Below the pieces are notes generated by a model. That model did no database searches. It was given only the letters and a program-made list of their open reading frames with translations, and was not told the DNA's origin. The translations under genes and the position numbers were made by a program. From contig CAILTI010000029.1 of the NCBI GenBank assembly GCA_903837075.1, forward strand, positions 1-39,225: a stretch of 39,225 nucleotides of DNA, read 5' to 3'. Source of the stretch: an uncultured bacterium. GTDB lineage: Bacteria; Patescibacteriota; Minisyncoccia; Phycocordibacterales; PALSA-1337. This document shows, piece by piece, positions 1 to 36,806 of this stretch (position 1 is its first letter; each line of letters starts with the position of its first letter).

Positions 1-151
1 GTGACCAATATACCAGCGCATTTTCCAAAGGATGAGTGAATCCTTGGAGCGAGTCCTTTGTGAAAATGCTGGTATATTGGGAACAAAGCCGCAGACGATT
101 CAGCAGAATCGTGTCGTCTGGACTCTGAAAAGAGGTGTGAGAGGTTACTTT
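1..151. repeat. Dispersed structured repeat (MITE-like), partial copy cut by the window start
   Basis: 1-94 matches 29373-29466 at 92/94 nt; 131-151 (AGAGGTGTGAGAGGTTACTTT) resembles the right inverted repeat of the 29333-29495 copy. Confidence 0.85.
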
Positions 152-159
152 TATAGCTA

Positions 160-187
160 TTGACTTTTACCTATATTGCGGTATAAT
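160..187 (+). promoter_or_regulatory. Sigma70-type promoter for the DGR target gene
   Basis: TTGACT (160-165), 16-nt spacer, TATAAT (182-187). Confidence 0.65.
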
Positions 188-215
188 ACATGCAGTTCTT
201 TGATATGCTAACTTA

Positions 216-295
216 GTAGGTGATTTTGCAAAATCGCCTACGTTCGCTACAGCATTTAGTGGTCTAGGAGGTAGACTATTGAATGCTGTGGCGAA
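216..295 (+). promoter_or_regulatory. Structured 5' leader of the DGR target gene (two long hairpins)
   Basis: Hairpin 216-241 and a fully paired 24-bp stem 243-266/272-295 (4 G-U pairs) with a GGAGG loop. Confidence 0.6.
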
Positions 296-364
296 GAGTC
301 CAGCGACAAAAATAACCGAGCTTGCCATTTGAGGCTTGCTTAACAATAGAAAGGACACGTTATT

Positions 365-997
365 ATGAATAGCACGTTCACGTTGAGTCAGGGTGCCGGT
401 CAGAAACTGGAATTCGCATTCCAACGAAATGATGGTAATACAGCCGATTTGGAGTGGTTATCGACGGGCGACAACCTCAGGTCAGTCATCCAACTCGCAC
501 GAGGCGAAGCGGATCTGGGTCTCAAGGCTAAACCCGCTCTTGAGCCCGAGCCGGCGATCGACTCGATCATCCGTGTGGATCGTTCGATCCGCCCCACTTA
601 TCCAGACTGGGTGAAGACAGTGATGCATCCTGAATTGGAATCCATTGGCCCAGCTGAGTACGATATCTCACGAGTCGAGCAGTGGCTCCATGACGGCCAG
701 AAGGATGGGAAATGTATCGAAGGTAGCAAGATCTATGCCCATCTCAAGGAGACCTACACACTCAAGACTTGTCTAGGACTGTGTGACCTGAAGGTAATCC
801 AGAATAAAGGCACCGCCTTTTTCCGGGAGCACTTCAAGTACAAAGCAGTCTTCGCGTGGAAAGGGGTCGTGCGGAGCCGCGATGGCGACCTCCGCGCCCC
901 GTACCTCTACGATCTCGGCGACGATGTCGCCCTGTCTTGGTTTTGGCTCGGCAACGGCTGGTTCGACAGTGACCCGGCCCTGCGTCTCGCAAGTTAG
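365..997 (+). CDS. DGR target (variable) protein, 210 aa, C-terminal VR-encoded region, probably C-type-lectin-like fold
   Basis: Last 43 codons match the TR with adenine-specific substitutions; AAGGA upstream of the ATG; fold is inferred from typical DGR targets with a C-terminal VR. Confidence 0.9.
   Translation: MNSTFTLSQGAGQKLEFAFQRNDGNTADLEWLSTGDNLRSVIQLARGEADLGLKAKPALEPEPAIDSIIRVDRSIRPTYPDWVKTVMHPELESIGPAEYDISRVEQWLHDGQKDGKCIEGSKIYAHLKETYTLKTCLGLCDLKVIQNKGTAFFREHFKYKAVFAWKGVVRSRDGDLRAPYLYDLGDDVALSWFWLGNGWFDSDPALRLAS
866..992 (+). repeat. DGR variable repeat (VR), ending in an invariant GC-rich/IMH-like segment (974-992)
   Basis: 127-nt ungapped alignment to 1337-1463; 22 mismatches, 19 at TR adenines. 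Confidence 0.95.
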
Positions 998-1095
998 TAC
1001 TTTGGACTGAGTCACTTTGCACTTTCTGCACTTTGACCTTAGCTCTAAAAATCTGGTGGTATAACCACTCGGCATGGAATGAGCCGCTGACATTC

Positions 1096-1126
1096 AAAAC
1101 CCGAACGATGAGATCGTTCGGGTTTT
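1096..1126. terminator. Perfect 14-bp hairpin downstream of VR (terminator and/or DGR homing cruciform)
   Basis: AAAACCCGAACGAT-GAG-ATCGTTCGGGTTTT. Confidence 0.75.
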
Positions 1127-1140
1127 CTAATATTGAAATA

Positions 1141-1149
1141 TGCTATGAT
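1141..1149 (+). promoter_or_regulatory. Extended -10 promoter candidate for the TR RNA
   Basis: TGcTATGAT; predicted start near 1156 coincides with the first stem of the structured leader. Confidence 0.5.
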
Positions 1150-1155
1150 TATTTG

Positions 1156-1510
1156 CGGTAGTAGGTGAATACGCTGGCGGCCATGTGCTTCCGGCTACCG
1201 AATCCAGTATCCATAAACTGAGAGCGTCTGCGGCCAACCCAGTAGGTCATCCTACTGGATGAGACGCTAAATCAGATTCAATCCTGAGATCGCTAATGGC
1301 TTCGAGGGGTGGTGATATGGATGGTGTTTTGTATGTATCGTGCGGAACCGCAATGGCAACCTCAACGCCCCGTACCTCTACGAGAACGGCGACAATGTCG
1401 TCCTGAACTGGAATTGGCTCGACAACGACTGGAACGACAATAACCCGGCCCTGCGTCTCGCAACTCTCTTCATTTCTCTCCCTTTTACATTTTCGTAGAT
1501 TTGGGAGAGT
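1156..1510 (+). ncRNA. Putative DGR template RNA (structured leader, TR, 3' spacer hairpin)
   Basis: Stems 1156-1161/1195-1200, 1209-1215/1316-1322, 1223-1229/1262-1268, 1239-1246/1251-1258; TR 1337-1463; 3' stem 1476-1482/1503-1509. The 3' end is uncertain. Confidence 0.55.
1337..1463 (+). repeat. DGR template repeat (TR)
   Basis: 12 AAC/AAT codons in the VR frame; differs from VR almost only at adenines; next to Avd-like and RT genes. Confidence 0.95.
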
Positions 1511-1844
1511 TTTGTTTTGTAAGCTGTCCGCTCCAACCGCCGAGATTTTTGCCAATTTCCTCTAATATTAACGAAAGCGCAATGTATCGCTTGTCAATTA
1601 GCGACTTGGTTTCCCACAAGATCATGAGAAGTATTTTCAATGCATCTAGCTTCTTAATAGCCAACCTTACATACGGTTGCTTTTCGGTTGGACCGAGGAA
1701 GCTGGCTGCGGCGATTGCTTCAATGATTTCAACAAATAATGATTCAATCCTGAAACCGATTGAGTGTCTATGCAGTTTCGGTATGTCTTGATAATATGTG
1801 TACCAAAGCAAATATGCATCCTTCACTTTACTCAAAACAGGCAA
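1485..1844 (-). CDS. avd: DGR accessory variability determinant (Avd-like four-helix-bundle protein), about 119 aa
   Basis: Basic helical protein with IPKLHRHSIGFRI and EEIGKNLGGW, typical of the bAvd/four-helix-bundle family. Start uncertain: TTG 1844 gives the usual size, ATG 1916 would overlap RT. Confidence 0.8.
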   Translation of the reverse strand: MPVLSKVKDAYLLWYTYYQDIPKLHRHSIGFRIESLFVEIIEAIAAASFLGPTEKQPYVRLAIKKLDALKILLMILWETKSLIDKRYIALSLILEEIGKNLGGWSGQLTKQNSPKSTKM

Positions 1845-1875
1845 AATTCGTGCGGGGGGGGGTCCGATTAATAGT

Positions 1876-2895
1876 ATGTCTAGAATCCAATTCAACCATA
1901 CATACGATAGTATCATTTCTGTAGAGAATCTGCTCGGAGCATGGAAAGATTTTTTGAAAGGCAAAAAGAAGAGGAAAGATGTGCAGGAATTTGAACGCGA
2001 TCTGATGGCGAACATCATTTCATTACATAACGATCTGCAATCCAAGACCTACAAACATTCAGTGTACGAATTTTTCCGAATATATGACCCAAAACTGAGA
2101 GACATTCATAAAGCTACTGTGCGAGACAGGGTATTGCACCGAGCTGTGTACAGGGAGTTGTACCGATTTTTTGACAAAACATTTATAGCGGATTCATTTT
2201 CATGCCGGATGAGAAAAGGAACACATAAAGCTATTGATAGATTCAGGTCATTTGCTCGCAAGGCATCTCGTAATCATACAATGACAGTATGGGTTCTAAA
2301 ATGTGATATACGAAAATTCTTTGCATCGATTGATCAGAATATTTTGAAGGAGATAGTCAAACTGTATGTATATGACAGATACATCCGTAAATTGCTCTTG
2401 GAAATCACTAATAGTTTTTCGTCTGGTGAAAAAGGTGTCGGTCTTCCACTAGGGAATCTAACGTCTCAACTGTTTGTGAACATTTATATGAATGAATTTG
2501 ACCAATATGTAAAGCATAAGATGAAAGCAAAACACTACATACGTTATGCAGATGATTTTGTCATCATTTCACGAGATAGAGAATGGCTTTGTAATCTCAT
2601 TCCTCAAATTGGTGACTTTCTCTGGTACAGATTGAAGTTACGACTTCATCCTGATAAGGTCTCCATAGGAACTATTGCCGCTGGTGTAGACTATCTTGGC
2701 TGGGTAAGTTTTCCTGATCACCGAATAGTTCGTACATTGACGAAAAAGAGAATGTTTAGAAGACTTAAGGATGTTGATGGTAAAGTTGAGACGGTCCGTT
2801 CGTATCTCGGATTGTTGAAACATGGAAATGCCAAGATGTTACGAGATAAGGTCGAATCAATGAAAACTACCCATAAACGCCGAGACACAGTATAA
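1876..2895 (+). CDS. DGR reverse transcriptase, about 339 aa
   Basis: KCDIRKFFASID, GLPLGNLTSQ (DGR-type GxxxSQ), YIRYADDF, DYLGW; no maturase or endonuclease extension; ATG 1876 preferred over GTG 1798. Confidence 0.95.
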   Translation: MSRIQFNHTYDSIISVENLLGAWKDFLKGKKKRKDVQEFERDLMANIISLHNDLQSKTYKHSVYEFFRIYDPKLRDIHKATVRDRVLHRAVYRELYRFFDKTFIADSFSCRMRKGTHKAIDRFRSFARKASRNHTMTVWVLKCDIRKFFASIDQNILKEIVKLYVYDRYIRKLLLEITNSFSSGEKGVGLPLGNLTSQLFVNIYMNEFDQYVKHKMKAKHYIRYADDFVIISRDREWLCNLIPQIGDFLWYRLKLRLHPDKVSIGTIAAGVDYLGWVSFPDHRIVRTLTKKRMFRRLKDVDGKVETVRSYLGLLKHGNAKMLRDKVESMKTTHKRRDTV

Positions 2896-2904
2896 TTAAC
2901 CCCA

Positions 2905-4047
2905 ATGAAAACACTCAAAGATATCGAATATCTATCTGGCGTAAAGGTGCTCGTGCGCGTTGATTTCAATGTACCTATCAAGAACGGCCTAGTTGCTGAT
3001 GACTTTCGTTTGAAAGCGGCTTTGCCGACGATAGATTTCCTCACAGGTAAAGGTGCCAAGGTGATCTTGATGAGTCATCTAGAGTCTGCAGATGGTACCA
3101 ATCCATCCCTTGCGCCAGTTGCCGACAGACTGAAGAAACTCGGCCGAGAGGTAATATTCATCAAGGATTTCAATAAGGCGCATGAAGTTATCAATGAACA
3201 ATTGAAAGGTGGAGCATGCGCACTGCTAGAAAATTTGCGTTATTTTGATGGTGAAAAGAAAAACGATCCGAAGTTTGCAAGAGAGTTGTCTTCACTCGGA
3301 GATCTATATGTGAACGATGCTTTTTCCGCCTCACATAGAGAGCATGCGTCGATCGTCGGTGTGCCGAGATTGATGCCTAGTTACGCAGGATTACAGATGG
3401 AGAAGGAAGTCACGAGTCTGTCAAAGGCGTTCGATCCAGCACATCCATTCCTATTCATTTTGGGAGGGGCGAAATTCGGCACCAAATTGCCATTGGTAGA
3501 AAAGTTCATGAATATCGCCGATCAGATCTTTGTAGGAGGGGCATTGGCGAACGATCTATTGAAGGCGAAAGGATATAATGTTGGCATGTCGAAGGTTTCT
3601 GAGGAAAAGGATTTCCCAGTTCCCATGTCAGATCTCAGAACTATGGCACAAAATACGAAACTCATATTGCCTATAGATATCATAAACGAGCAGAAAGTCG
3701 CAAAGATGACAGATGCACTATCAGCGAGTGACAAGAATGTCGACATGGGACCGAAAACACTAGAAAATATCAAGGATATAGTTTCCAAGTCTAGATTCGT
3801 TCTCTGGAATGGGCCGATGGGAGTATATGAGTCTGGATTCAAGGAGGGAACTATAGAATTGGCGAAGATAATGAGTGAGGCAACAGCCAGAGGTGTCGAG
3901 ACGATAGTCGGCGGGGCAGATACATTGGCGGCGATCGCTGAGCTCGGCAGTCGAGAGACATTCTCTTTCATTTCTACTGGAGGTGGTGCGATGCTAGATT
4001 TCCTAGCAAAGGGAACTCTACCAGGAATCGAGGCGTTGAAGGATTAG
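2905..4047 (+). CDS. pgk: Phosphoglycerate kinase
   Basis: RVDFNVP, LLENLRY, VNDAFSASHR, LGGAK, WNGPMG, STGGGA motifs. Confidence 0.97.
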   Translation: MKTLKDIEYLSGVKVLVRVDFNVPIKNGLVADDFRLKAALPTIDFLTGKGAKVILMSHLESADGTNPSLAPVADRLKKLGREVIFIKDFNKAHEVINEQLKGGACALLENLRYFDGEKKNDPKFARELSSLGDLYVNDAFSASHREHASIVGVPRLMPSYAGLQMEKEVTSLSKAFDPAHPFLFILGGAKFGTKLPLVEKFMNIADQIFVGGALANDLLKAKGYNVGMSKVSEEKDFPVPMSDLRTMAQNTKLILPIDIINEQKVAKMTDALSASDKNVDMGPKTLENIKDIVSKSRFVLWNGPMGVYESGFKEGTIELAKIMSEATARGVETIVGGADTLAAIAELGSRETFSFISTGGGAMLDFLAKGTLPGIEALKD

Positions 4048-4161: not shown

Positions 4162-5283
4162 ATGAATTACAATAGGACAATAAATAAGATCCTAGTTGAA
4201 AATATAGGCAGCAAGCCGATATTGGTGCTTTATGGTGCACGACAAGTCGGTAAGACAACATTGATGAAATCAATAATGGAAAGGTTTACAAAAACCCTAT
4301 ATTTACAAGGAGATGATCCGAAGGATGCGTTACTGCTCGAACACAGATCATCAGATGAGTTGTCCAGTCTCGTATCTGGTTATGATCTCATAGTTATAGA
4401 TGAAGCTCAGAGGGTGAAGGATATAGGTACAACACTCAAGTTGATCGCTGATAATGTAAAAGATGTGAGAGTTATCGCATCGGGGTCGTCTTCATTTGAA
4501 CTAGCTAATAAATTGAGTGAGCCTCTGACGGGTAGGAATCGTAAATTTTACCTTTACCCATTATCTGTATCAGAATTGGTGGAGGCATATGGGAAAATAA
4601 ATACAGACAAGGAACTTGAGACATACATGACTTTTGGTATGTATCCAAAGATCGTTTCTGCGCAATCTAGAGAAGAAAAGGCGATCCTTATAAAAGAATT
4701 AGCAGGGGATTATCTATTCAAGGACTTGTTCATGTTTGGGGATATTCGAAACTCATTTGCTTTTGAGAAGTTGATCAAGCTTCTAGCGCTTCGCATAGGC
4801 AGTGAGATTTCGTACTCAGAATTGGCCAAAGAAGTGGGAATAAGTAGAGATACTGTTATGAATTATATCAAATTACTCGAACAGGCATTCATCATATTCC
4901 GATTGACACCACTATACACCAATAAGGCAAAGGAGATAAATAAAAGTCATAAGATTTACTTTTATGATATTGGTATAAGGAACGCTCTCATAAATAATAC
5001 CGATCCGATGGAATTACGCCCTGATAAAGGTGCGATTTTCGAAAACTTCTTTATTGCGGAAAAAGTGAAGGAAAGAGAATATTCCGGTCGATCAGGAGAA
5101 ATTCATTTTTGGAAGAGTCGAAGTGGAAGCGAAATTGATTTTGTTGAAGTCTCTGGCGGTATTATCAAGGCATATGAATGTAAATGGAAGGAGATCGCTA
5201 AAGCGCCGAAGGCGTGGCTAGAGACATATCCAAAGTCTAGTTTTGAATGTGTTACAACAGAAAATGTTGTTGACCATTTCTAG
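4162..5283 (+). CDS. AAA+ ATPase (AAA_14 plus DUF4143-type)
   Basis: Walker A GARQVGKT, Walker B VIDEAQ, SGSSS, LTGR, KIYFYDIG, EIDFV...ECKW tail. Confidence 0.88.
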   Translation: MNYNRTINKILVENIGSKPILVLYGARQVGKTTLMKSIMERFTKTLYLQGDDPKDALLLEHRSSDELSSLVSGYDLIVIDEAQRVKDIGTTLKLIADNVKDVRVIASGSSSFELANKLSEPLTGRNRKFYLYPLSVSELVEAYGKINTDKELETYMTFGMYPKIVSAQSREEKAILIKELAGDYLFKDLFMFGDIRNSFAFEKLIKLLALRIGSEISYSELAKEVGISRDTVMNYIKLLEQAFIIFRLTPLYTNKAKEINKSHKIYFYDIGIRNALINNTDPMELRPDKGAIFENFFIAEKVKEREYSGRSGEIHFWKSRSGSEIDFVEVSGGIIKAYECKWKEIAKAPKAWLETYPKSSFECVTTENVVDHF

Positions 5284-6611: not shown

Positions 6612-8453
6612 GTGTCATATATCGTCCGACAGCCATTATCAGAAAAGGAACGAGCGAAACTCGGGGCTTTTTCGCCGTTGTTGGCGCACCTCTTGTTTCA
6701 TCGTGGAATAGTTGGAGGGGAAGAGGCGGAGCGGTTCATCTCGCCAAATTATGAGAATGGTACACATGATCCATTCCTATTGAAAGATGCGGAAAAAGCA
6801 GCGATCAGGGTGATCAGTGCCATAGATAAAGGTGAAAGGATCGCTATATATTCTGATTATGATGCGGACGGTATCCCTGGTGCGGCTATTTTCAATGATT
6901 TCTTCCAGAGAATTGGTTACAAGAATTATTCGGTTTACATTCCTCATAGGCACGATGAAGGTTTCGGAGTGAATGCTGAGGCAGTGGAATTGTTGGCTAG
7001 CGAAGGGGTTAAACTCATGATCACTATAGACTGCGGGATCACAGATGTTGAGCCGATCAAGTTGGCTAGAGAAAAGGGGATCGATGTCATCATCACTGAC
7101 CACCATGAAGCGCCGGTACAGCTGCCAGAAGCCTACGCGATCATCGATCACAAGCAGGTAGGTTGCATGTATCCAGACAAGAATCTATGCGGCTCCGGTG
7201 TGGCATACAAGCTGATCCAGGCGATCTTGAAGAAAGATAGATTTGGTCTCAAGGATGGAATGGAAAAATGGTTGCTCGATCTGGTCGGCATCGCTACGAT
7301 GTCAGATATGGTGCCGCTCATGGGGGAGAATCGTATCTTTGCTCACTACGGTTTGGCTGTTCTACGCAAAAGTCCGAGAAAAGGCATCATGCAGTTGCTG
7401 CGCAAGCTCGGTATCAACCAGCGCCACCTCACCGAAGATGACATTGCTTTTATGATAACGCCGCGTATCAATGCCGCTTCCAGGATGGGGGTGCCCATGG
7501 ATGCATTCAAGTTATTGGCGGCAGATAATGATGATGATGCTTATACGGCGGCCAATCATCTGGATAAGATCAATAACGAGAGGAAGGGGGTGGTCGCTTC
7601 TCTCGTTAAGGAGGTAAAAAAGATATTGCATACGAGATACGCGGAAAATATCCAATATCCCATGCCAGCTGTCATAGTCATGGGCAACCCTGACTGGAGG
7701 CCATCATTGTTGGGTTTGGTGGCGAACTCTGTAGCCGAAGAGTATAGTCGACCAGTTTTCCTCTGGGGCCGCGATGGTGATAATATCATCAAGGGATCGT
7801 GTAGATCTGGAGGCAAGACCGATCTCGTCGCACTCATGCGTGCTGTGCCCGTGGGATCTCTGGGACATTTTGGTGGTCACAAGCAGGCGGGGGGATTTGA
7901 AGTGCATAATGACGCTATTCATTTTCTAGAAAAGCATCTGAATGATGCTCATAAGGCTGTTACAAATTTATCGGCTCACCCTTTTGGGGAGAGTAGTTCC
8001 TCTCCTCCTGCCTGCCGGCAGGCACGGCAAACCTCGCAAGGGGGAATCGTAGAGAAATTCTCTCCCCAAGCGGGTGAAATGAATGTTGCAGCTATTAATG
8101 AAGACATGGTCGACATGGAATTGACATTAGACGAAGTCAGTTATGCATTTCATGATGATCTGAACAAATTGGCACCATTCGGGATGGCCAATCCCAAACC
8201 GATATTTTTATTTAAAAAAGTGTCACCAAGTTCGGTGAGAACATTTGGTAAGACCAACAATCACGTGGAGCTGGTCTTCAAAAAGTCGAATGGAGTGAAA
8301 ATTCCAGCGATCTCATTCTTCGGTGCTGAAAACGAATGGGCCAAGACCGTGCAGGTCGGAAAACCCATCGACCTCGTAGCATCAGTGGAAAAGTCCTTGT
8401 TCAGAGGAAGGGAAGAGCTAAGATTGAGAATTATTGATACAATACAATTATGA
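6612..8453 (+). CDS. recJ: Single-stranded DNA exonuclease RecJ
   Basis: DYDADG, PHRHDEGFG, TIDCG, TDHH, PRINAASR, GSCRS, GGHKQAGG, LAPFGMANPKP; GTG 6612 chosen as start. Confidence 0.95.
   Translation: MSYIVRQPLSEKERAKLGAFSPLLAHLLFHRGIVGGEEAERFISPNYENGTHDPFLLKDAEKAAIRVISAIDKGERIAIYSDYDADGIPGAAIFNDFFQRIGYKNYSVYIPHRHDEGFGVNAEAVELLASEGVKLMITIDCGITDVEPIKLAREKGIDVIITDHHEAPVQLPEAYAIIDHKQVGCMYPDKNLCGSGVAYKLIQAILKKDRFGLKDGMEKWLLDLVGIATMSDMVPLMGENRIFAHYGLAVLRKSPRKGIMQLLRKLGINQRHLTEDDIAFMITPRINAASRMGVPMDAFKLLAADNDDDAYTAANHLDKINNERKGVVASLVKEVKKILHTRYAENIQYPMPAVIVMGNPDWRPSLLGLVANSVAEEYSRPVFLWGRDGDNIIKGSCRSGGKTDLVALMRAVPVGSLGHFGGHKQAGGFEVHNDAIHFLEKHLNDAHKAVTNLSAHPFGESSSSPPACRQARQTSQGGIVEKFSPQAGEMNVAAINEDMVDMELTLDEVSYAFHDDLNKLAPFGMANPKPIFLFKKVSPSSVRTFGKTNNHVELVFKKSNGVKIPAISFFGAENEWAKTVQVGKPIDLVASVEKSLFRGREELRLRIIDTIQL
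7976..8077. repeat. Palindromic element inserted in frame in recJ, with a nested REP-like CCTGCCTGCCGGCAGGC unit
   Basis: Terminal IR TCACCCTTTTGGGGAGAG/CTCTCCCCAAGCGGGTGA (16/18); 102 nt; similar to 25468-25547. Confidence 0.75.
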
Positions 8454-9190
8454 AAAACATTCACACAACGATCTTTACTGACGGGTCTTCACGTGGCAAT
8501 CCAGGTCCGGGAGGATGGGCCAGCGTTATCATTGAAGATTCGAAGATCGATAGCCAAAATGCAGAGGTAATAGTTACGGAGTTGGGTGGACACGAAGCGA
8601 TGACGACGAATAACAGGATGGAACTATCGGCGGCATTGCACGGGATCTCGCACCTACCTGATGGTGCTCAGGCGAAAGTATTGACTGATTCGTCTTATGT
8701 GATCAATGGGATTACAAAATGGATAAATGGCTGGAAGAGAAATGGCCGGAAAACCAAGACGAAAGATGACGTGATGAATCGAGATTTGTGGGAGAAGATC
8801 GATGAGGCGATAGTTGGCAAGAAAATCGAGTGGAAATATGTCGGAGGCCATGTTGGCATCATCGGTAATGAGAGGTGTGACCATATCGCTACGGATCTCG
8901 CGGATGGTAACAAGATAGATCTGTACCATGGACCACTCAGCGGATATGATCTGCCGAATATTCTGGATATTTCATATGATGAAGTCAAAGCGAAATCGAA
9001 GAAATCATCTTCGTCGCATTCACGAGCAGTGGCGTATTCGTACGTCAGTTCTGTCGGAGGAGTGATCGAAACTCACAGGGTGTGGACGGACTGTGAGAAG
9101 AGGGTAAAAGGTATGAAAGGGGCGAAATACAAAAAATCAACCAGTGTCGGAGATGAGGCCAAAATAATATCTGAATTTGAGGCGATCTAG
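8450..9190 (+). CDS. rnhA: Ribonuclease HI with a C-terminal viroplasmin-like hybrid-binding domain
   Basis: FTDGSSRGNPGPGGW, TNNRMEL, TDSSYV, NRDLW, GHVGIIGNERCD; C-terminal WTDCEKRVKG..AKYKK. Confidence 0.92.
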   Translation: MKNIHTTIFTDGSSRGNPGPGGWASVIIEDSKIDSQNAEVIVTELGGHEAMTTNNRMELSAALHGISHLPDGAQAKVLTDSSYVINGITKWINGWKRNGRKTKTKDDVMNRDLWEKIDEAIVGKKIEWKYVGGHVGIIGNERCDHIATDLADGNKIDLYHGPLSGYDLPNILDISYDEVKAKSKKSSSSHSRAVAYSYVSSVGGVIETHRVWTDCEKRVKGMKGAKYKKSTSVGDEAKIISEFEAI

Positions 9191-9365
9191 TAGTGTTCAC
9201 TGATCGGAAATAGCAGATCCCGGTCTTCGAGGTTTGATACAACGGCCATACTAGGCCGTTGTTTTCGACGAGGGTAGGCCGCGATTCTTTATATCTTCTT
9301 TATCATTTCTTCATTGTTTCTTCACCGGATCTTTATCGGACTTTTGATATGTTAAGTGAACATAT

Positions 9366-10832
9366 ATGAAGAAAGGTACATACATATTTTGGAGCATATT
9401 TGTTGCCGCGGCCATTTTTCGTGTCTACCAATCTCTATATGTTATACCTCCATCGATAGGTCCCTGCGTCAAACAGGTAGTTTCCGGTAATGGCACAGTG
9501 ACGGATGAGCCGGAGATCAAGGACACGGGTCAGGTATTGGTTGTCTCGGTCAGTGCATTGTCTGTGACGAGTTCATCTCGTCAGTGTGGAACTGATTTCC
9601 TGATCAGAATGAAAACCAAAAGCTATCCGAGATTTCAATATGGTGACGGGGTTTTCTTCAAGGGGAAATTGCTGAAACCGATGAATTTCGTGAATGGTGA
9701 CGACCCTGGTCGGTCTTTTGATTACGAAGGATATTTGGCAAAGAGTGATATTTTCTATGAAATGAAAAGTGCGGAGGTGCACATATTCGCCGAGCGCACT
9801 GGTCCGAATACGAGCGAGTCATTCCTGGCCACTCTAGCTCATGATATTAACGGGTTGTTGTATTCACTGAAAAGGCATTTTGTGGCAGTTTTAGAGAAAA
9901 CTCTCGGTGAACCACATGCGGCACTGGCGTCAGGACTGGTCGTGGGAGAAAAGTCTGCGTTAGGAGCCGATCTTCTAGCGGATTTTAGAACTGTCGGACT
10001 CATACACATCGTCGTTCTGTCTGGTTACAACATCACGATCGTCGGTGATGCGATGCGTAGATTGCTCATATTTCTACCCCGCATCTGGGGCATATCGATA
10101 GGGGGGATCGGTATCGCGCTGTTCGGTATGCTCGTTGGTGGTGGAGCGACTGTCGTTCGATCATGCTTCATGGCTGGGGTGGCATTGTCTGCAGACATCA
10201 TCCGTCGTGACTATGATGTCACTCGAGCTCTCATCTTTGCGGGACTCATCATGCTCATACAGAGTCCGATGATCTTGTTACATGACCCGTCATTCCAGTT
10301 GTCATTCTTGGCGACTTTGGGGCTCATATTGCTGGCGTCGCCTATCGAGGAGAGATTGACTTTCATTCCTGACAAGTTCGGTGCACGAGGGATCGTCGCG
10401 GCGACGGTAGCCACACAGATATTCGTCTCGCCTTACATACTATATATGATGGGCAATCTCTCTATCGTTGGGATGATAGTAAACATATTGGTTCTTCCAT
10501 TCATCCCGATAACGATGTTGTCGGTATTTTTGACGGGCGCGATCGGGCTGTTCTCTATGCCCATCGCACAGCTTTTCGCCTGGGTGACGCACCTGCTCCT
10601 GTCTTATGAGCTATTCATGGTGCAAACCTTCGCCAAACTACCATTCGCGGCTGTTCATCTGCCCGCATTTTCGAAATGGTGGGTGGTGGGATTCTATGTG
10701 ATATTTTTCGTGGTCTATTTTAGGCGGAATCCGAATATTATTCAGATTATGCGAGGCATCTATGGATATGCGAGTTCAGTGGTCACTCATGTAACATTTA
10801 GAAAATTTCAAAAACTTCCAAAAGAACTTTGA
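9366..10832 (+). CDS. comEC: ComEC/Rec2 competence protein (OB-like plus membrane Competence domain)
   Basis: FDYEGYL, GLIHIVVLSGYN, VVRSCFM, PSFQLSFLAT, many transmembrane segments. Confidence 0.92.
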   Translation: MKKGTYIFWSIFVAAAIFRVYQSLYVIPPSIGPCVKQVVSGNGTVTDEPEIKDTGQVLVVSVSALSVTSSSRQCGTDFLIRMKTKSYPRFQYGDGVFFKGKLLKPMNFVNGDDPGRSFDYEGYLAKSDIFYEMKSAEVHIFAERTGPNTSESFLATLAHDINGLLYSLKRHFVAVLEKTLGEPHAALASGLVVGEKSALGADLLADFRTVGLIHIVVLSGYNITIVGDAMRRLLIFLPRIWGISIGGIGIALFGMLVGGGATVVRSCFMAGVALSADIIRRDYDVTRALIFAGLIMLIQSPMILLHDPSFQLSFLATLGLILLASPIEERLTFIPDKFGARGIVAATVATQIFVSPYILYMMGNLSIVGMIVNILVLPFIPITMLSVFLTGAIGLFSMPIAQLFAWVTHLLLSYELFMVQTFAKLPFAAVHLPAFSKWWVVGFYVIFFVVYFRRNPNIIQIMRGIYGYASSVVTHVTFRKFQKLPKEL

Positions 10833-10947
10833 GATTCTCTGGAGGACGGGCGGCTCACGTTAGTGAGTCGATCCCTCCATACTGCGTATTCGCTTTTGGC
10901 GAACGCTGGCGGCCGACCCGAATTTTCCGCTCTTAGAGAATCTCAAA
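10828..10947. repeat. Multi-hairpin element bounded by a 13-bp inverted repeat
   Basis: TTTGAGATTCTCT/AGAGAATCTCAAA with internal hairpin CGGCTCAC-GTTA-GTGAGTCG; contains the comEC stop codon. Confidence 0.6.
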
Positions 10948-11003
10948 ATGCTCAAGGTACTTCATTTCCGATCAGTCGTATACTATTCGAAAATACTCGA
11001 AGG

Positions 11004-36400: not shown

Positions 36401-36800
36401 GGGGATGATCGGCATAGACAATCAACCGTTCCCGTTCGTGCGGTGCGAGCACCATTAACTCGGAGTCCTTCGAAGCTCTCTTGTAGAGCGTAGTAGGACG
36501 AAAATCTGATGGAAATTCTAAATGCTAAATCAACCGTTTCGCCGTATTTCGGCCAAAAGGACTTTGCATTCGCTCTCGTTTAACGAGGCCGTCCTTCTAT
36601 AGGGATCCTAACTATAGTGTGGGCGTAATAACGTGGATGTAGGGTAGTGTGTCTTCTCAACACATCACCTGAAATCTAGAGATCGTGACTGTGTGTTTCG
36701 CAATACTTTTAGCACAGTCATCAAACTTCAAGTTTTGCTAACATCGTAGATTCGTTCGACGAACATTGATTGCACGGCGGTTCGATTCCGCCCATCTCCA
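36401..36800 (+). ncRNA. ssrA: tmRNA
   Basis: 5' GGGGATG pairs with 3' CATCTCC (G3-U), T-arm GGCGGTTCGATTCCGCC, tag frame 36524-36583, directly after smpB; CCA not encoded. Confidence 0.93.
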
Positions 36801-36806
36801 CAACAC

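Follow-up and report, generated by a model that had tools for sequence, protein, structure and literature searches.

A Putative RNA Element over the 3′ End of Inverted avd and a Candidate Template RNA Unit in Diversity-Generating Retroelements of Patescibacteria

A 39,225-nt stretch of contig CAILTI010000029.1 (GenBank assembly GCA_903837075.1, an uncultured bacterium of the Patescibacteriota), hereafter the window, carries a complete diversity-generating retroelement (DGR) within its first 2.9 kb. The cassette occupies positions 160–2895 and comprises a target gene, the template repeat (TR), an inverted avd gene, and the reverse transcriptase (RT) gene. The adenine-biased pair of the TR and the variable repeat (VR), the RT gene beside the TR, and the presence of Avd identify the element as a DGR, and the order TR(+), avd(−), RT(+) corresponds to what Wu et al. 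2018 (Nucleic Acids Res 46:11; PMC5758913) named architecture B3. We propose, with a probability of roughly 0.65, that in this B3 DGR the TR lies in a small unit of its own and that a hairpin and a U-tract located over the avd 3′ end terminate the TR RNA. On the + strand, the unit follows the target terminator and has the order promoter-like element, leader, TR, 12-nt tail, hairpin, and U-tract. Intrinsic termination would take place near 1515–1520, inside the avd 3′ end, and the TR RNA would be a discrete small RNA of about 365 nt in the window and about 420 nt in its relatives.

The hairpin is located at positions 1476–1509 (+ strand). Its outer stem is formed by CTCTCCC (1476–1482) and GGGAGAG (1503–1509), and it covers the avd stop codon together with the last seven codons of the gene. 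The avd gene encodes 119 aa and extends over 1485–1844 of the − strand, from a TTG start codon at 1844–1842 to a TAA stop codon at 1487–1485. An earlier interpretation of this DNA made from its letters, the sequence-only reading, had described a stem straddling the avd stop; the stem is indeed present, and the same position covaries in relatives. The close spacing of the TR and avd noted there also holds, although the distance from the TR end at 1463 to the avd stop is 21 nt between them and not 22 nt. The window hairpin folds at −14.7 kcal/mol and contains an inner 5-bp stem. It is directly followed by the U-tract TTTTGTTTTGT (1510–1520, + strand), the antisense of which encodes Avd residues T-K-Q-N. 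The layout of an intrinsic terminator, a GC-rich stem-loop and then a U-tract, is present in 1476–1509 plus TTTTGTTTTGT.

Relatives of the window RT are encoded by 173 genome and 313 metagenome stretches, and those examined carry TR/VR pairs. The first comparison set consists of 80 loci from other Patescibacteria genomes and the second of metagenome loci; eight of the 37 metagenome loci examined are identical to loci of the first set. The RTs of these relatives are 55–73% identical to the window RT, and no relative closer than 73% was found in the genome and metagenome searches. In the relatives, the hairpin starts 0–20 nt past the TR and typically has the form CTCnnnn-loop-nnnnGAG TTTTGTTTT; the avd stop codon lies inside it in 41 of 68 loci. 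At least five T among the eight nucleotides after the hairpin are found in 60/68 loci on the + strand and in 0/68 on the − strand, and a hairpin with a T-rich tract was detected in 33 of 36 loci of the metagenome set. In a 26-sequence alignment, 85.7% of the cells of ten stem pairs are paired, compared with 41–60% when the partner is slid. Seven of these ten pairs are changed on both sides, with 36 compensated cells versus 12.2 in shuffles (0/500). A program scan for terminators lists the hairpin site in two related loci, L010 and L013; the window site is missing from it because the 20-nt loop exceeds the limit of the scan.

The bases shared by the hairpin, the U-tract, and avd were considered from the side of the protein gene as well. 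The phase in which avd translates the GAGTTTT motif is not constant: three codon phases occur, with 32, 21, and 4 of 57 loci, and the resulting tail peptides are QNSP, KTP, or KLP. Codon choice was counted in 40 loci chosen by peptide pattern, with the kinship among the loci ignored: AAC makes up 30/31 cases in the avd tail versus 36/99 in the gene body (p = 6e-10), CAA 26/26 versus 113/172, AAA 40/43 versus 355/493, and ACT 12/15 versus 60/221. Thus, synonymous choice in the tail runs to the form needed by the + strand, and the suppressed synonymous variation that the sequence-only reading had proposed to look for at the avd 3′ end is present. Given the three codon phases and the suppressed synonymous choice, the conservation of the tail does not come from the Avd peptide. 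The hairpin and U-tract are therefore an RNA/DNA element superimposed on the avd 3′ end, with about 35 bp shared, and these bases of avd and the TR unit are constrained as nucleic acid and not as Avd peptide.

That 1476–1520 owes its conservation to a C-terminal Avd peptide or to a role as avd terminator, with no part in the TR RNA, is highly improbable. The tail peptide KQNSP does recur in many relatives, and a hairpin at the stop codon could stabilise the avd mRNA; however, the reading of the same nucleotides as three different peptides largely refutes this explanation. Moreover, the Avd family models stop short of the tail, residues 117–119 of the predicted Avd structure have pLDDT below 50, and a T-run after the hairpin is absent from the minus strand of all 68 loci.

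The other end of the proposed unit is marked by an extended −10-like element, TGC-TATGAT, at 1141–1149 (+ strand), 7 nt 5′ of the conserved leader start GGTAGTAGG (~1157). Of 41 relatives, 34 have a TAnnnT hexamer 3–10 nt ahead of this start, often after TGn. In 44 canonical relatives, a leader of about 230 nt precedes the TR, and eight helices are shared among them. When the leader helices and the terminal hairpin are taken together (nine helices, 60 pairs), 92.5% of the pairs are formed versus 41–50% in slid controls; 52 of the 60 pairs are changed on both sides, and 572 compensated cells were counted versus 157 in shuffles (0/500). One of these helices is long-range and connects the leader motif AAAUGAAGA, about 100 nt 5′ of the TR, with UCUUCAUUU between the TR and the hairpin. 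This 9-nt leader–tail duplex is 82.9% paired in the relatives, and seven of its nine pairs are changed on both sides. Cognate leader and tail strands form a duplex of −4.65 kcal/mol versus −3.03 kcal/mol for non-cognate ones, a difference reached in 0 of 20,000 permutations (56 loci). The comparison shows a predicted cis-acting RNA that lies mostly upstream of the TR, where the leader would take the role of a scaffold for the TR RNA, and the long-range duplex would bracket the TR next to the terminal hairpin. The sequence-only reading had placed the priming spacer 3′ of the TR; in the relatives, the large conserved cis-acting RNA is on the 5′ side.

No match to Rfam 15 at E up to 1 was found on window positions 1–3000, and the only match of the whole window at the gathering threshold is a tmRNA. 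On seven related loci, only a tRNA and a c-di-GMP-II riboswitch were detected. The riboswitch lies at 4217–4336 of locus L013, shortly downstream of the DGR RT gene, and scores 60.2 bits, above the gathering threshold. The motifs RT-1 to RT-19 of Weinberg et al. 2017 were considered as an identity for the leader and rejected, since neither the window nor the seven related loci gave the corresponding Rfam 15 match.

According to the sequence-only reading, the RNA just 3′ of the TR is antisense to the avd 3′ end. This is borne out, and the overlap is selected at the nucleotide level. The conserved element looks like an RNA end near 1515–1520, which would make the overlap about 35 nt and not 140 nt as with a spacer of Bordetella length. 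The same reading has the avd mRNA pair with the TR RNA and gate mutagenesis. In the corresponding model, the functional spacer would reach far into antisense avd, as the 140-nt Sp of the Bordetella phage would suggest, and the avd mRNA would pair with the spacer or the TR and gate cDNA synthesis. The convergent overlap of the TR and avd is real and conserved, which fits this idea, and a minus-strand search for terminator-like sites 3′ of avd gave 0 of 68 loci. As avd has no such site of its own, its mRNA may run antisense over the TR as far as a hairpin at 1100–1126. That hairpin, read from the letters on the + strand 3′ of the target gene, has 10 bp, a GAG loop, and AAAA/TTTT flanks, and is terminator-like in both directions; the program scan does not list it in the window, although it lists the equivalent site in L010. 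If both RNAs ended at the terminal hairpin, their overlap would be short. Locus L036 (882–3963), the sole exception to the common gene order, is also instructive here. Its target–TR–avd module is inverted relative to the RT gene, and despite this inversion the TR and avd are kept 3′-to-3′, with a two-way hairpin at the junction that the avd stop precedes. On the other hand, conservation past the U-tract has a period of three, as in coding sequence, an unbiased scan revealed no covarying helix there, the hairpin with U-tract and the promoter suggest a short RNA, and the structured cis-acting RNA sits 5′ of the TR. Antisense gating of this kind seems decidedly unlikely to us.

As for the RT gene, it encodes 339 aa (1876–2895, + strand, ATG at 1876) and is arranged head to head with avd; the gap between them, put at about 30 nt in the sequence-only reading, measures 31 nt. 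The gap contains a homopolymer of nine G (1854–1862, + strand), at a distance of 9 nt to the start of avd and 13 nt to the ATG of RT. A run of at least six G (mode 9–10, range 6–14) was detected in the avd–RT gap of 70 of 76 loci. Four further loci have (GT)8–10 or (GA)6–7 in this place, and two are without any repeat. In the metagenome set, 51 of 56 loci carry a G run, two a dinucleotide repeat, and one (TGAC)12. Outside the gap, the same loci contain seven G/C runs of at least 7 in 453,878 nt. Such a run is missing from L036, whose avd and RT lack the head-to-head arrangement. In the 730-kb genome of the window, G/C runs of at least 9 are found only at the gaps of its two DGRs and at the end of a repeated element. 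Contigs C8, C26, C28, C34, C40, and C43 of this genome (e.g., C40 12306–12436) carry a repeated element of about 120 bp; its edges consist of inverted motif copies, namely a C/G run of 6–9, an A-rich stretch, and GTTGTCATGACAAC. Possible identities are a small mobile element and a family of repeats.

The length of the run differs in 5 of 13 clusters with 99.7–100% identical 300-nt flanks (10/11, 9/10, 10/9, 10/9, and 14/9), with homopolymer assembly error being possible and some of the equal-length pairs being probably the same data. A pattern with the exact flanks of the window run matched no stretch (0) in metagenome contigs, and no contig piece from four DNA runs spans 1581–1864. The repeat is kept although its sequence type changes, as is characteristic of phase-variable repeats. 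Our hypothesis, derived from these sequence comparisons, is that the run is prone to slipping and lies where RT expression begins. Depending on the lineage, it would act on the spacing of a promoter or on the reading frame. An ATG is located 13 nt past the run in 17 of 69 loci, and 25 of 69 have a TAnnnT hexamer directly adjoining the run; in L013, the program scan sees the promoter-like site CTGGCA-18-TAGAAT with the run within its spacer. A start codon downstream of the run and ahead of the conserved RT N-terminus is lacking in 15 of 69 loci, where the run is translated as Gly-Gly-Gly. Among these is the second DGR of the window's genome (locus L005): a G10 run at 3955–3964 lies in the first RT codons, the ATG being seven codons before it. 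The RT frame is open through the run in 53 of 70 loci versus 34 and 30 for the other two frames, and only 26 of the 53 have an upstream ATG, GTG, or TTG; since the tested stretch contains the true start, this enrichment is partly expected by construction. In the window, the avd frame is open upstream to an ATG at 1916 and the RT frame to a GTG at 1798 (open reading frame 1798–2895, through the G run), and avd or RT could have an extended form overlapping the start of the other gene. No paper on the G run or on slipped-strand repeats in DGRs was found in the literature searched.

The same gap bears on another explanation, in which the hairpin is chiefly a non-terminating Avd-binding stem-loop and the TR and RT are co-transcribed through antisense avd. 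Stem-loops that bind Avd and lie directly 3′ of the TR are predicted by Handa et al. (bioRxiv 10.1101/2023.10.23.563531), also for the candidate phyla radiation (CPR). In line with co-transcription, the 31-nt gap leaves little space for a separate RT promoter, and the RT frame is often open through the G run. However, a GC-rich stem with a U-tract right behind it is what marks a terminator, and the U-tract is strand-specific in the relatives; the −10-like hexamers abutting the run and the promoter-like site of L013, with the run in its spacer, also speak against co-transcription, which we regard as unlikely. The roles of Avd-binding stem-loop and terminator are not mutually exclusive. Under the proposal of a separate TR unit, the hairpin may double as the Avd-binding stem-loop predicted by Handa et al., and RT and avd would be expressed from the compact head-to-head region that holds the G run.

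A broader model can be put forward tentatively, as possible rather than probable. Patescibacteria DGRs may be contingency loci, in which a slipping repeat at the avd/RT junction stochastically switches mutagenesis. Their template would be a self-contained small RNA with a 5′ protein-binding scaffold clamped to a 3′ tail in the avd end, unlike the RNA of the Bordetella phage.

Several points weigh against the proposal that the TR forms a separate, terminated unit. Both the 5′ and the 3′ end of the TR RNA were deduced from sequence features. The helices were picked on the same alignment that was used for counting, which favours them over the slid controls; this choice, together with the relatedness of the loci, means that the controls overstate the case, and many two-sided changes remain. 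The kinship of the loci is ignored in the leader–tail energies, the helix counts, and the tail codon counts alike. The RNA of the window as a whole folds unremarkably (z −1.59). The 20-nt loop makes the window hairpin weaker than those of most relatives, in which loops are 3–6 nt long, and the U-tract is absent in 8 of 68 loci. It could instead pair with an A-run beside the leader motif; as the U-tract and the A-run are both invariant, covariation cannot decide between such pairing and a role in termination. Finally, no equivalent of the Bordetella priming site was found, if the TR RNA terminates at the U-tract, and the unbiased scan of paired columns gave no covarying partner for the TR 3′ end.

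The remaining parts of the cassette are as follows. A strong promoter-like site, TTGACT-16-TATAAT, is located at 160–187 (+ strand), 5′ of the target gene. The latter (365–997, + strand) is an open reading frame of 210 aa, the 3′ end of which is formed by the VR; searches of its product against Pfam and NCBIfam revealed no family match. The VR (867–992) and the TR (1338–1463), both on the + strand, are 126 nt long, and the last 21 nt of the TR (1443–1463) are identical to the VR. Their alignment contains 21 differences, 18 of which are at TR adenines, the other three being 1384 G>T, 1401 T>C, and 1408 C>T. The RT matches PF00078 (E 1.2e-21), and its best NCBIfam match is a group II intron RT, under the cut-off of that model.

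The product of avd was identified by both family and fold. It matches PF22296 (E 9e-8) and NF033474 (E 6.6e-14), in both cases below the curated cut-offs; positions 1–102 of NF033474 align from the TTG at 1844–1842 onward, and PF22296 is matched by all 30 of 30 Avd proteins of relatives. The AlphaFold model of the window Avd, built on the alignment of relatives, is a four-helix bundle with pLDDT 93.2. Foldseek superimposes it on the Avd of the Bordetella phage (4dwl) with TM 0.83/0.89 and rmsd 1.5 Å, and also matches it to the Avd chains in structures 8ub7–8ube of the DGR ribonucleoprotein. A profile search of PDB sequences with Avd gave no match at E up to 0.01, with Avd chains appearing at E 0.25 and 1.3 only; the question of the fold was settled by the structure search. 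The sequence-only reading had staked its argument on a match of this open reading frame to the bAvd family or a four-helix bundle, and both are found.

When the leader of the window is added to the alignment of relatives, it can be noted that this copy is truncated (1157–1337, + strand). H1 (5/5 pairs), H6 (4/4), and the terminal hairpin (6/6) are kept, and the H2 3′ strand (1/6), H3 (0/10), the H4 5′ strand (2/11), and H5 (0/5) are missing. About 80 nt of the canonical leader core are replaced by 31 nt (1233–1263) with a local hairpin at 1239–1258. The 3′ tail segment CTCTCTTCATTT (1464–1475, + strand), which in relatives is the partner of the leader motif AAAUGAAGA, is present; the motif itself is missing in the window, and the bracketing duplex of the relatives is absent there. 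The reading frames of RT and Avd are intact. The window copy may be decaying or impaired, given the loss of the leader core and the three non-adenine differences between the TR and VR, and without the core it is unfit as a working reference. Independent contigs agree with the letters of the window over 1030–1583, and the contigs of four DNA runs, which are low-depth pieces only, list no VR variant. One contig of a DNA run matches 1189–1232, then leaves the window and continues as the canonical leader of relatives, which suggests a co-occurring relative.

The sequence-only reading contrasted the inverted avd with the co-oriented genes of BPP-1 and proposed a survey of its orientation in related DGRs. 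The survey showed the layout to be nearly universal among the relatives, and it is already in print as B3. The window Avd is matched in 75 of the 80 genome loci, in 74 of which avd is on the minus strand directly 5′ of the RT gene; in the five loci with no match, the sequence 5′ of the RT extends for about 110 nt at most. The order VR(+)–TR(+)–avd(−)–RT(+) was detected in 69 loci, including the window and the second DGR of its genome. In this set, the distance from the TR end to the avd stop has a median of 15 nt (range −73 to 70), and the median distance from the VR end to the TR start is 335 nt. In the metagenome set, avd is on the minus strand beside RT in 56 of 59 loci with enough upstream sequence, a 57th being flagged merely because its reading frame overlaps RT, and all 36 of the 36 loci with a detectable TR/VR pair have the same order. 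The second DGR of the window's genome (assembly G000, contig C19, about 8400–11000; 2419–5012 of L005) likewise has the B3 order. Identity to the window proteins is 51% for its RT and 25% for its Avd, all 21 of 21 differences between its TR and VR are at adenines, and its leader is divergent.

Two more observations concern the window outside the cassette. A long inverted repeat, TACCAGCGCATTTTC ... GAAAATGCTGGTATA, is located at its very start (10–77), upstream of the promoter-like site of the target gene. In turn, a tmRNA gene (RF00023, 71.9 bits) lies at 36401–36803.

The inverted-avd layout is published and ordinary for CPR/Patescibacteria. In Wu et al. 2018, B3 is TR–(avd)–RT and accounts for 90% of their CPR set, and components on different strands are said to need at least two transcription units. 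The order and orientation of TR, avd, and RT, the upstream target, and the host group are the same as in the window, and no difference in layout can be noted; the layout thus adds nothing new, because it is the published norm for CPR. The main text of that paper is without the words 'spacer', 'promoter', 'antisense', and 'operon', and it does not deal with the dual-coded hairpin, the leader, or the G run. The dual-coded terminal hairpin, the leader that clamps the template, and the avd–RT repeat were not found in the literature searched, nor was a paper on DGR covariation or noncoding RNA dealing with these features.

The DGR of the Bordetella phage BPP-1 (avd–TR–brt) likewise contains RT, Avd, and a TR/VR pair with adenine-specific differences. 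It also has a stem-loop just 3′ of the TR, and the Avd folds match. However, avd is co-oriented in BPP-1, whereas in the Patescibacteria clade it is convergent and abuts the TR at the short median distance given above. According to Handa et al., the essential RNA of BPP-1 surrounds the TR, with the 3′ spacer supplying the cis-primer, and downstream stem-loops together with duplexes between upstream and downstream sequences are predicted in 207 of 278 DGRs, CPR included. For that prediction, 40 nt upstream and 100 nt downstream of the TR were folded; the upstream strand of the duplex in the Patescibacteria clade is about 100 nt before the TR, outside these 40 nt. The covarying RNA of this clade is the leader of about 230 nt 5′ of the TR, in contrast to the 140-nt spacer Sp 3′ of the TR in BPP-1. 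In this DGR type, the commonest of a very large bacterial radiation, the RNA elements that would be expected to recruit RT–Avd are thus located mainly 5′ of the template. Such upstream elements bear on the generality of the Bordetella cis-priming model and on the design of a minimal DGR cassette.

Intrinsic terminators shared by convergent genes similarly place a GC-rich hairpin and U-tract at the junction. The difference is that here one partner has the hairpin within its coding end and the U-tract is on one strand only, from which it follows that the hairpin could terminate only the TR RNA. A few dozen bases serve as the end of a protein gene and, on the opposite strand, as an RNA hairpin and U-tract, which makes them a clear-cut natural example of dual coding, found in a minimal genome.

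Phase-variable simple-sequence repeats are known in the promoters and 5′ coding regions of contingency genes, such as those of Neisseria and Haemophilus and the fim genes of Bordetella. The avd–RT repeat resembles them as a homopolymer of 9–10 G between divergent genes, with (GT)n, (GA)n, or (TGAC)n in its place in some loci; its length also differs between otherwise identical sequences, for which homopolymer errors in assemblies may account. It differs from them in that the hosts are uncultured Patescibacteria and the controlled genes would be those of the mutagenesis machinery itself; the conservation of the repeat suggests that hypermutation itself may be stochastically switched.

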